DNA from: a virus
Taxonomy: Duplodnaviria > Heunggongvirae > Uroviricota > Caudoviricetes
Virus record (IMG/VR): IMGVR_UViG_2877948078_000003
Reading direction: 5' to 3' (one strand)
DNA length: 64,000 nucleotides
Position 1 is the first letter of the stretch; each line of letters opens with the position of its first letter. Under the pieces are notes generated by a model that did not search any database, was not told the origin of the DNA, and worked only from the letters and a program-made list of their open reading frames with translations. A program made the position numbers and the translations under genes. Shown here in pieces: positions 27,675 to 28,046 of this stretch.

Positions 27675-27850
27675 ACCCCGTCTCCCGCAATCCGGAAGCT
27701 CACAACATGAAAAAGGCCGCCAGTGCTCCACTGACAGCCTCGTGTAGTTACTCTGAGTGCCCAACAATTCCCTGTCAAACGTGTTGACATTAAGAATCGC
27801 TTTTGTGTAGAAAAATTATGGCATGCATAACAATAAAACCTCACAGCCGT

Positions 27851-27910
27851 ACTATTTCCACCAGAAGCATGACGCATTTCTCCCTGTGCTTACTGGTGGA
27901 TTTTTTTTGC
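27851..27910 (+). terminator. Plus-strand terminator-like hairpin
   Basis: CCACCAGAAGCA..TGCTTACTGGTGG stem followed by ATTTTTTTT. Confidence 0.35.
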
Positions 27911-28010
27911 CCCGCAAATACCGCTGACACATATTGACAATAAGAATATTTTTCATTTAAAAATATTCATGTACAAAAATGTTTCTCTGGAGTGTCCATA
28001 GAGCTCACCC

Positions 28011-28046
28011 GCCAGTCCATTCCGGTAACTGGCGGCTTTTTTATCA
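28011..28046 (+). terminator. Plus-strand terminator-like hairpin
   Basis: CCGCCAG..CTGGCGG stem followed by CTTTTTTAT. Confidence 0.4.

Follow-up and report, generated by a model that had tools for sequence, protein, structure and literature searches.

The described systems closest to the locus treated here are the small RNAs PasA and PasC of EPEC E2348/69, both of which have been validated by northern blot and show reduced stability when Hfq is absent (PMC8550237). Their reported ends are 743499->743415 for the major form of PasA (85 nt), 743499->743264 for a minor form (236 nt) and 1290909->1290832 for PasC (Pearl Mizrahi et al. 2021, Table S6, PMC8550237), while the EHEC homologues EcOnc51 and EcOnc52 were found as Hfq-CRAC peaks in Sakai Sp12 and Sp4 (PMC8550237, Table S6; Tree et al. 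2014, PMC4104026). The genes pasA and pasC are immediate neighbours of the holin/lysozyme operon, and in PP2 pasA and pasD2 flank a sialic acid esterase gene (Zhu, Shabalina and Storz 2026, preprint, doi 10.64898/2026.05.13.724894). A BLAST-based survey identified few phage genomes with Pas genes.

When placing these ends on the sequence, the spacer between esterase and holin in E2348/69 was seen to contain, on the strand opposite to late transcription (the anti-late strand), two tandem cassettes reaching from a TTGACA to a terminator in PP2 and one such cassette in PP5. Counted from the first T of TTGACA, the 5' ends of PasA and PasC are both 35 nt further downstream (locus coordinates), and their 3' ends are at T-runs; for the major PasA form this is the last T of the first T-run, and the minor form reaches the terminator of the second cassette, which abuts the stop codon of the esterase gene. 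Cassettes matching EcOnc51/52 could be located in Sakai Sp12 and Sp4.

A second pair of described RNAs, AsxR and AgvB of EHEC prophages (Tree et al. 2014, PMC4104026), resembles the units presented below: both are short sRNAs of prophages, each with a promoter and a terminator of its own, and both are located in the "moron" interval between Q and S and oriented against late transcription. They differ in being situated upstream of the esterase gene, AsxR being 3' of stx2B, and in being 51–60 nt long with a conserved 3' domain that is absent from the units of the present locus. Prophage sRNAs such as PasA, AsxR and AgvB tie Stx-type prophages to host metabolism and virulence regulation.

The window, i.e. 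the whole stretch of 64,000 nt that was analysed, contains the following genes around the region of interest:

26487-26939, minus strand: Rz, lysis gene
26921-27454, minus strand: SAR-type lysozyme, lysis gene
27459-27674, minus strand: P21-type class II holin (pinholin), first gene of the lysis cassette (Pfam PF04971, E 9e-33)
28044-28506, minus strand: 3' fragment of a nanS-p-type SASA/DUF6645 esterase gene (Pfam DUF6645, E 2e-39)

The region of interest itself is the spacer separating the P21-type holin gene from the esterase 3' end. In a relative that is 100% identical, NZ_CP027312 of strain 2013C-3181 (locus L001), the holin is annotated as well and the nanS-p-type esterase gene is intact, encoding 654 aa.

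In the preliminary description a motif, TTGACA(T/A)TAAGAAT, was said to recur in this spacer. The recurrence could be confirmed, with exactly two plus-strand copies of TTGACAWTAAGAAT in the 64-kb window, at 27784-27797 and 27934-27947, the first of them starting one position later than the 27783 originally given. A search allowing up to two mismatches over the window still returned just the sites at 27784 and 27934, and no exact match appeared in 100 dinucleotide-preserving shuffles of the window. Together with the sequences downstream of them, the two copies define two tandem units on the plus strand, followed on the holin side by a hairpin on the late strand:

27784-27789, plus strand: -35 hexamer TTGACA of cassette 1 (type A), exact consensus
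27807-27813, plus strand: -10-like block (G)TAGAAA of cassette 1, 17–18 nt after the -35 hexamer, as read from the sequence
27819-27908, plus strand: predicted sRNA 1, ~90 nt, 5' end placed to within +/- 2 nt from the geometry of PasA/PasC
27857-27908, plus strand: intrinsic terminator 1, stem at 27857-27900 followed by T8 at 27901-27908
27934-27939, plus strand: -35 hexamer TTGACA of cassette 2 (type B), part of the exact motif copy
27958-27963, plus strand: -10-like block TAAAAA of cassette 2, after an 18-nt spacer and within the conserved TTCATTtAAAAA
27969-28042, plus strand: predicted sRNA 2, ~74 nt, 5' end likewise placed from the geometry of PasA/PasC
28009-28042, plus strand: intrinsic terminator 2, stem at 28009-28035, a C and then T6 at 28037-28042
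27713-27741, minus strand: terminator-like hairpin on the late strand, 13 pairs and TTTTT, between the cassettes and the holin start

The 5' ends of the two predicted RNAs were set 35 nt from the first T of TTGACA, as in PasA and PasC. In cassette 1 the hexamer is unchanged in 7/7 type A variants, and its distance to the predicted RNA equals that of the TTGACA from PasA and PasC with their mapped 5' ends, both of which also show a TCAGAA at the spacing of the -10-like block of cassette 1, 6–7 nt before the reported 5' end. In cassette 2 the TTGACA is the exact point from which BLAST matches extend, in Stx phages as well as in E. coli prophages; this hexamer reads TTGACA in 12 sequences of the 14-sequence alignment A1 and TTGATA in the other 2. 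Among the 14 BLAST-derived homologues of unit 2 the -35 hexamer, the TTCATTaAAAA block around the -10-like element and the core of the terminator are nearly invariant, and the ~10 nt following the -10 block, corresponding to the first transcribed nucleotides, are the most variable part. Both -10 blocks are non-canonical, TAGAAA as well as TAAAAA lacking the usual T at position -7, and a consensus promoter scan called neither of the two proposed promoters; it flagged only an overlapping and weaker alternative, CTGACA-17-TATTTT, at 27924-27952.

The preliminary description had also considered repeated protein-binding sites, and the two copies of TTGACAWTAAGAAT could in principle be recognised by a phage or host regulator instead of being promoters, which would agree with a 14-nt motif repeated 150 nt apart and with an AAGAA extension that is partly common to types A, B and C (see below). 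This is however highly improbable when all cassette types are compared, as the only elements common to all of them are the TTGACA hexamer and an A-rich -10-like block, the WTAAGAAT extension not being preserved in PasA, PasC or the EcOnc52-type cassette. Moreover TTGACAWTAAGAAT has no dyad symmetry, the fixed distance to the mapped 5' ends of PasA and PasC marks TTGACA as a -35 element, and the likeness of the two copies is explained by a tandem duplication of the promoter.

Folding verified the earlier observation that each motif is followed by a hairpin and a T-run on the plus strand. A simple terminator scan had missed both hairpins since their loops are above its 8-nt limit. A reading of the hairpins as bidirectional or late-strand terminators was tried and rejected, as neither has a T-run on the minus strand, leaving them as plus-strand terminators only. 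The predicted RNAs fold with -22.5 kcal/mol (z -3.2) for unit 1 and -20.6 kcal/mol (z -2.2) for unit 2, in both cases with a weakly structured 5' part followed by the terminator, and a possible minor read-through RNA of ~224 nt is predicted across both units. The stem of terminator 1 is kept in 6/6 terminator variants (-14.8 to -20.1 kcal/mol), its apical loop varies, and in one variant a C>U change gives a G.U pair. In terminator 2 the 7-bp core CCGCCAG/CUGGCGG is intact in 12/14 sequences of alignment A1, the other two having two mismatched pairs. RNAalifold, run on the same alignment, returned only this invariant 7-bp core and no covariation. The eighth pair, which was counted by script since MAFFT had put the variable pair in different columns, is C-G in 42 variants, U-A in 11 and U.G in 2. 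The terminator and its U-tail fold in every variant of both types, the tail of unit 2 consisting of six U's only.

When comparing the two units with PasA and PasC, several features are shared. The units are located between a nanS-p-type esterase gene and a lambdoid holin gene, as in PP2 and PP5; they are oriented against the late genes (plus versus minus, PasA and PasC being on the minus strand with late genes on the plus strand); and both have the sequence features of their own promoter, with a predicted start, and of a Rho-independent terminator. The TTGACA 35 nt before the 5' end, the tandem layout, the read-through minor form and the last terminator at the esterase stop, predicted sRNA 2 ending 1 nt before this stop codon, likewise recall PasA and PasC, which are RNAs of ~80–90 nt. 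The suggestion in the preliminary description of two short plus-strand transcripts antisense to the lysis leader thus gains support from the slot, the strand and the promoter and terminator geometry of PasA/PasC.

The similarity does not extend to the transcribed sequences. The proposed seed blocks of the window units differ from those of PasA and PasC, and global alignments of the window RNAs with PasA, PasC and EcOnc51/52 gave z 1.5–3.9 against shuffles, to be compared with 9.8 for a true homologue. A covariance model (R1), built from PasA, the PasA-like cassette of Sp12, PasC and two neighbouring cassettes of EcOnc52 type, gave no match at E <= 10 when searched over 27700-28100, and on type C cassettes only a marginal match to the terminator (E 0.09–0.49); no similarity in sequence and structure to PasA or PasC was thereby found in the transcribed regions. 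Nor did any Rfam family match at gathering score in the whole window, including AgvB (RF02702), AsxR (RF02703), STnc100 (RF02076) and Esr41 (RF02676), and at E <= 10 the best sub-threshold matches in 27600-28700 had E > 5 and were terminator-like only. Judged by their sequences, the window units are not members of the PasA/PasC sequence family but appear to be further members of the same kind of element. A literature search on nanS-p with sRNA, ECs1210 and DUF1378 revealed no description of cassettes of type A, B or C; sRNA cassettes in the nanS-p–holin spacer, directed against late transcription, are known as a kind, and neither of the window's two sequence types was found described in Rfam or in the papers searched.

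The two units are probably tandem autonomous sRNA genes on the plus strand, independent of Q, that would act mainly in trans as PasA does. This reading is favoured because the motifs and terminators are real and not due to chance, because the slot, the strand and the published end mapping of PasA/PasC fit the geometry in the window, because the conservation is gene-like, with the -35, the -10-like block and the terminator core being kept and a terminator pair switching between C-G and U-A, and because unit 1 keeps an unpaired AACAAUAAAACCUCA, the ORFs are unconserved and the cassettes behave as modules. Counted against it are the non-canonical -10 blocks, the lack of significant similarity to PasA/PasC, the missing CRAC peak at the Sp5 copy (see below) and the six-U tail. 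According to this proposal each unit would combine a σ70-type promoter (TTGACA, a spacer of 17–18 nt and a -10-like block rich in A) with a short non-coding body and a Rho-independent terminator; transcription of both in the lysogen would depend on neither Q nor pR', and base-pairing in trans would mainly involve AACAAUAAAACCUCA in RNA 1 and UCCAU in RNA 2. For the window units it is from the computational analysis that we infer transcription, start sites, use of a chaperone and targets.

Unit 1 represents a rare type, here called A: among 5426 complete E. coli genomes 62 carry it, and 7 sequence variants of it were found. Unit 2 (type B) is clearly homologous to the type C cassette, its transcribed part giving z 9.8 against shuffles. 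In BLAST it is ~78% identical to 300 phage records, mostly of Stx-converting phages, and 357 E. coli genomes also gave matches; 52 variants were counted in 133 loci. The type C family was defined by three features: the promoter scaffold TTGAYAAYRRRAA-N6-TMATTWAAAA, a block UCCAU, and a terminator CCGCCAG...CUGGCGG that adjoins the stop codon of the esterase gene. All of these features are present in unit 2, but not in unit 1, which is why the latter was set apart as type A. Type C cassettes, e.g. that of Sp5, share with unit 2 the scaffold TTGACAAYARGAA...TTCATTaAAAA, the UCCAU and the CCGCCAG/CUGGCGG terminator at the esterase stop, and differ from it by ~22% in sequence and by another 5' body containing a GAAA-loop element; they also usually occur alone, with DUF1378 and DUF826 ORFs in the place of unit 1.

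In the Stx2 prophage Sp5 of Sakai an intact and unannotated type C cassette was identified at positions 6085-6196 of locus L004 (minus strand of the record), between a nanS-p remnant disrupted by IS629 and ECs_1210. This cassette has no EcOnc Hfq-CRAC peak in Table S2 of Tree et al. (2014, PMC4104026), so that binding of Hfq is unsupported for unit 2 and the type C family.

The spacer is filled differently from one prophage to another. The following arrays were encountered, in a census that is biased by the way the loci were collected:

A + B: this window
A + B' + C: L005, L006 and others
A + C': L007 and L009
C alone, with DUF1378/DUF826 ORFs instead of A: most Stx phages
PasA + EcOnc52-type cassette: PP2 and Sp12
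PasC, a hybrid of a PasA 5' part and an EcOnc52 3' part: PP5

Three tandem cassettes, i.e. A, a B variant with TTGATA as -35 hexamer and C, are located at ~510-890 in L005 and L006 and are also present in L016, L019, L022, L023, L025 and L026. In E. coli STEC005 (NZ_CP041437; L035, 980-1470) the first 20 nt of the promoter of unit 1, TTGACATTAAGAATCGCTTT, as well as the holin leader (100%), are identical to the window, but in place of the RNA body TTGACATTAAGAATCGCTTT is followed by iraM in anti-late orientation, stx2B comes immediately after it, and an esterase gene is absent; this puts a recombination joint inside the promoter. A search of species-representative genomes gave 80 pattern matches, all in unrelated AT-rich organisms and none with an associated terminator. 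These matches are due to chance, and the species-representative collection holds no evidence of the family outside E. coli prophages.

Alternatively the units could be non-functional relics, i.e. decayed promoter-terminator duplicates that phage mosaicism carries along and that give rise to no stable or useful RNA. The rarity of unit 1 (62/5426 genomes), the non-canonical -10 blocks and the Sp5 homologue without Hfq-CRAC signal would be in line with decay, and among the Pas RNAs themselves a PasA-3 variant without terminator has been described as a possible pseudogene (Zhu et al. 2026, doi 10.64898/2026.05.13.724894). On the other hand a perfect -35 hexamer, an intact terminator and conserved internal blocks are kept in variants that differ elsewhere, the terminator shows a compensatory change, and cassettes like unit 2 are maintained in 357 genomes and 300 phage records, which makes decay quite an improbable explanation.

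In sRNA 1 the block AACAAUAAAACCUCA (27829-27843) is conserved and predicted to be unpaired in 7/7 type A variants, and sRNA 2 carries the conserved UCCAU block, which is kept in types B and C. CCUC/CUCC is an anti-Shine-Dalgarno-like sequence typical of the seed regions of sRNAs. Both blocks hold such a sequence (CUCC or GUCC in types B and C) and may for this reason be regarded as seed-like. Coding alternatives were rejected for both units: in unit 1 a 44-aa ORF (27803-27937) extends across the terminator and has no ATG in variants, and in unit 2 the short ORFs within the RNA are not conserved in variants. Pairing with the translation start of the holin, which was suggested by a resemblance between UUUUUUC-UCCAU and AUGGAAAAAA, was rejected too; in duplex energies and in a pairing-aware local alignment the RNA–holin start combinations ranked 60–129/288 and 66–164/288 among background starts, i.e. 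no better than these.

Besides acting in trans, the two units could act mainly in cis on the late operon, with convergent promoters and antisense RNAs exerting transcriptional interference or leading to processing of the duplex. Together with the terminator-like hairpin at 27741-27713 they would then shield the pinholin gene of lysogens from read-through originating in upstream morons, or adjust the timing of lysis. Both RNAs are indeed fully complementary to the spacer of the late transcript, from the esterase stop to the holin leader, all loci examined have their cassettes in anti-late orientation, the hairpin on the late strand directly follows and is functionally conserved in diverged loci, with equivalents of different sequence in PP2, Sp5 and L007, and in published data RIL-seq recovered chimeras of PasA with the 3' end of the adjacent esterase gene. 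However, the RNAs stop ~145 nt short of the holin start codon and overlap no translation start, their complementarity to the initiation region of the holin gene does not exceed that to background starts, ranking 81–164/288, PasA has many trans partners in RIL-seq, and in the window the late operon has already been cut from pR' by a Mu-like prophage while both cassettes are intact. A main role in cis is on this evidence regarded as unlikely. The hairpin at 27741-27713 may halt transcription that is not antiterminated ahead of the lysis genes.

Another hairpin on the same strand, ATGCC...GGCAT at 26422-26452 and followed by TTTTTG, is situated just downstream of the stop codon of Rz and may represent a late-strand terminator, or the 3' end of an RNA, after the lysis cassette.

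A broader version of the cis role, which is held to be just as doubtful, would see the nanS-p–holin spacer as a dedicated, modular "antisense sRNA slot" of Stx-type lambdoid phages with a conserved purpose in cis and with regulation in trans as a secondary gain. At least five unrelated RNA bodies (A, B/C, PasA, PasC and EcOnc52-type), and even iraM, may have been swapped within such a slot behind one common promoter scaffold facing outward, with one to three cassettes per array, and together with the terminator on the late strand it may guard the pinholin against read-through in the lysogen or set the timing of lysis. Compared with this, two autonomous genes acting mainly in trans is the reading that is preferred here.

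The spacer had originally been presented as the place where the late promoter should be, though with the motifs on the opposite strand, and this could not be upheld. Stx-type lambdoid phages are arranged in the order Q, pR', tRNAs, (stx), nanS-p, S, as exemplified by Q-tRNAs-stx2-nanS-p-S in Sakai Sp5, and in NZ_CP027312 the tRNA genes typical of the region after pR' are located at least ~4 kb beyond the esterase stop. With this order pR' should be situated kilobases upstream, beyond the esterase gene, and no late promoter is expected at 27780-28046. That no convincing late promoter had been seen on the minus strand agrees with the consensus scan, which gave no promoter-like site on this strand in 27000-29000. 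The pR'-6S RNA-tR' unit of lambda, phage 21 and 933W resembles the window units in having a promoter with a terminator ~100–200 nt further on in the late region; it is however located directly downstream of Q and on the late strand, whereas the window units are on the opposite strand and downstream of the esterase gene, with no Q nearby, and are hence not late promoter units. For annotation purposes the interval 27780-28046 is accordingly not a late promoter region.

In the window the connection to the region upstream is moreover interrupted. The esterase gene is cut at 28506/28507 by a Mu-like prophage, the left end of which starts with TG at 28507, and collinearity with NZ_CP027312 ends at 28506. 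The prophage extends past the end of the window and includes the following genes:

28757-29362, minus strand: Mu-like c-type repressor gene, at the left end of the prophage
29478-29726: ner
29728-31818: transposase A
31890-32822: transposition gene B
62436-62996: gin-like invertase gene, next to a SASA esterase gene
63096 onward, plus strand: the prophage's own SASA sialate-esterase gene

In other E. coli genomes the same left end adjoins many unrelated host genes. More than 35 kb of Mu-like DNA separates pR' from the lysis genes in the window, and through the insertion the lysis cassette has lost its connection to Q and pR'. The SASA esterase gene of the Mu-like prophage is ~81% identical to the lambdoid nanS-p; as its junction with the invertase gene is conserved, at ~99% identity, across 204 genomes, it is cargo of the Mu-like phage, sitting roughly where Mu has com/mom.

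If both cassettes are expressed, the sRNAs known from this slot would be part of a larger and interchangeable repertoire. A candidate sRNA gene beside nanS-p is present in hundreds of Stx-phage records and annotated in none of them, and the low number of phage genomes found to carry Pas genes is what would be expected if cassette types invisible to BLAST fill the same slot.

Between Rz and the terminase genes the window further contains a pair of convergent and slightly overlapping genes (24441-26070). The first of these (24441-25508, plus strand) matches PD-Lambda-2_C and "beta" in PADLOC, and the second (25450-26070, minus strand) matches "cll" in PADLOC and is annotated as "sce7726 family" by NCBI, which makes the pair a candidate anti-phage defence moron. 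In the otherwise identical NZ_CP027312 the first gene of the pair is split by an IS3 element.
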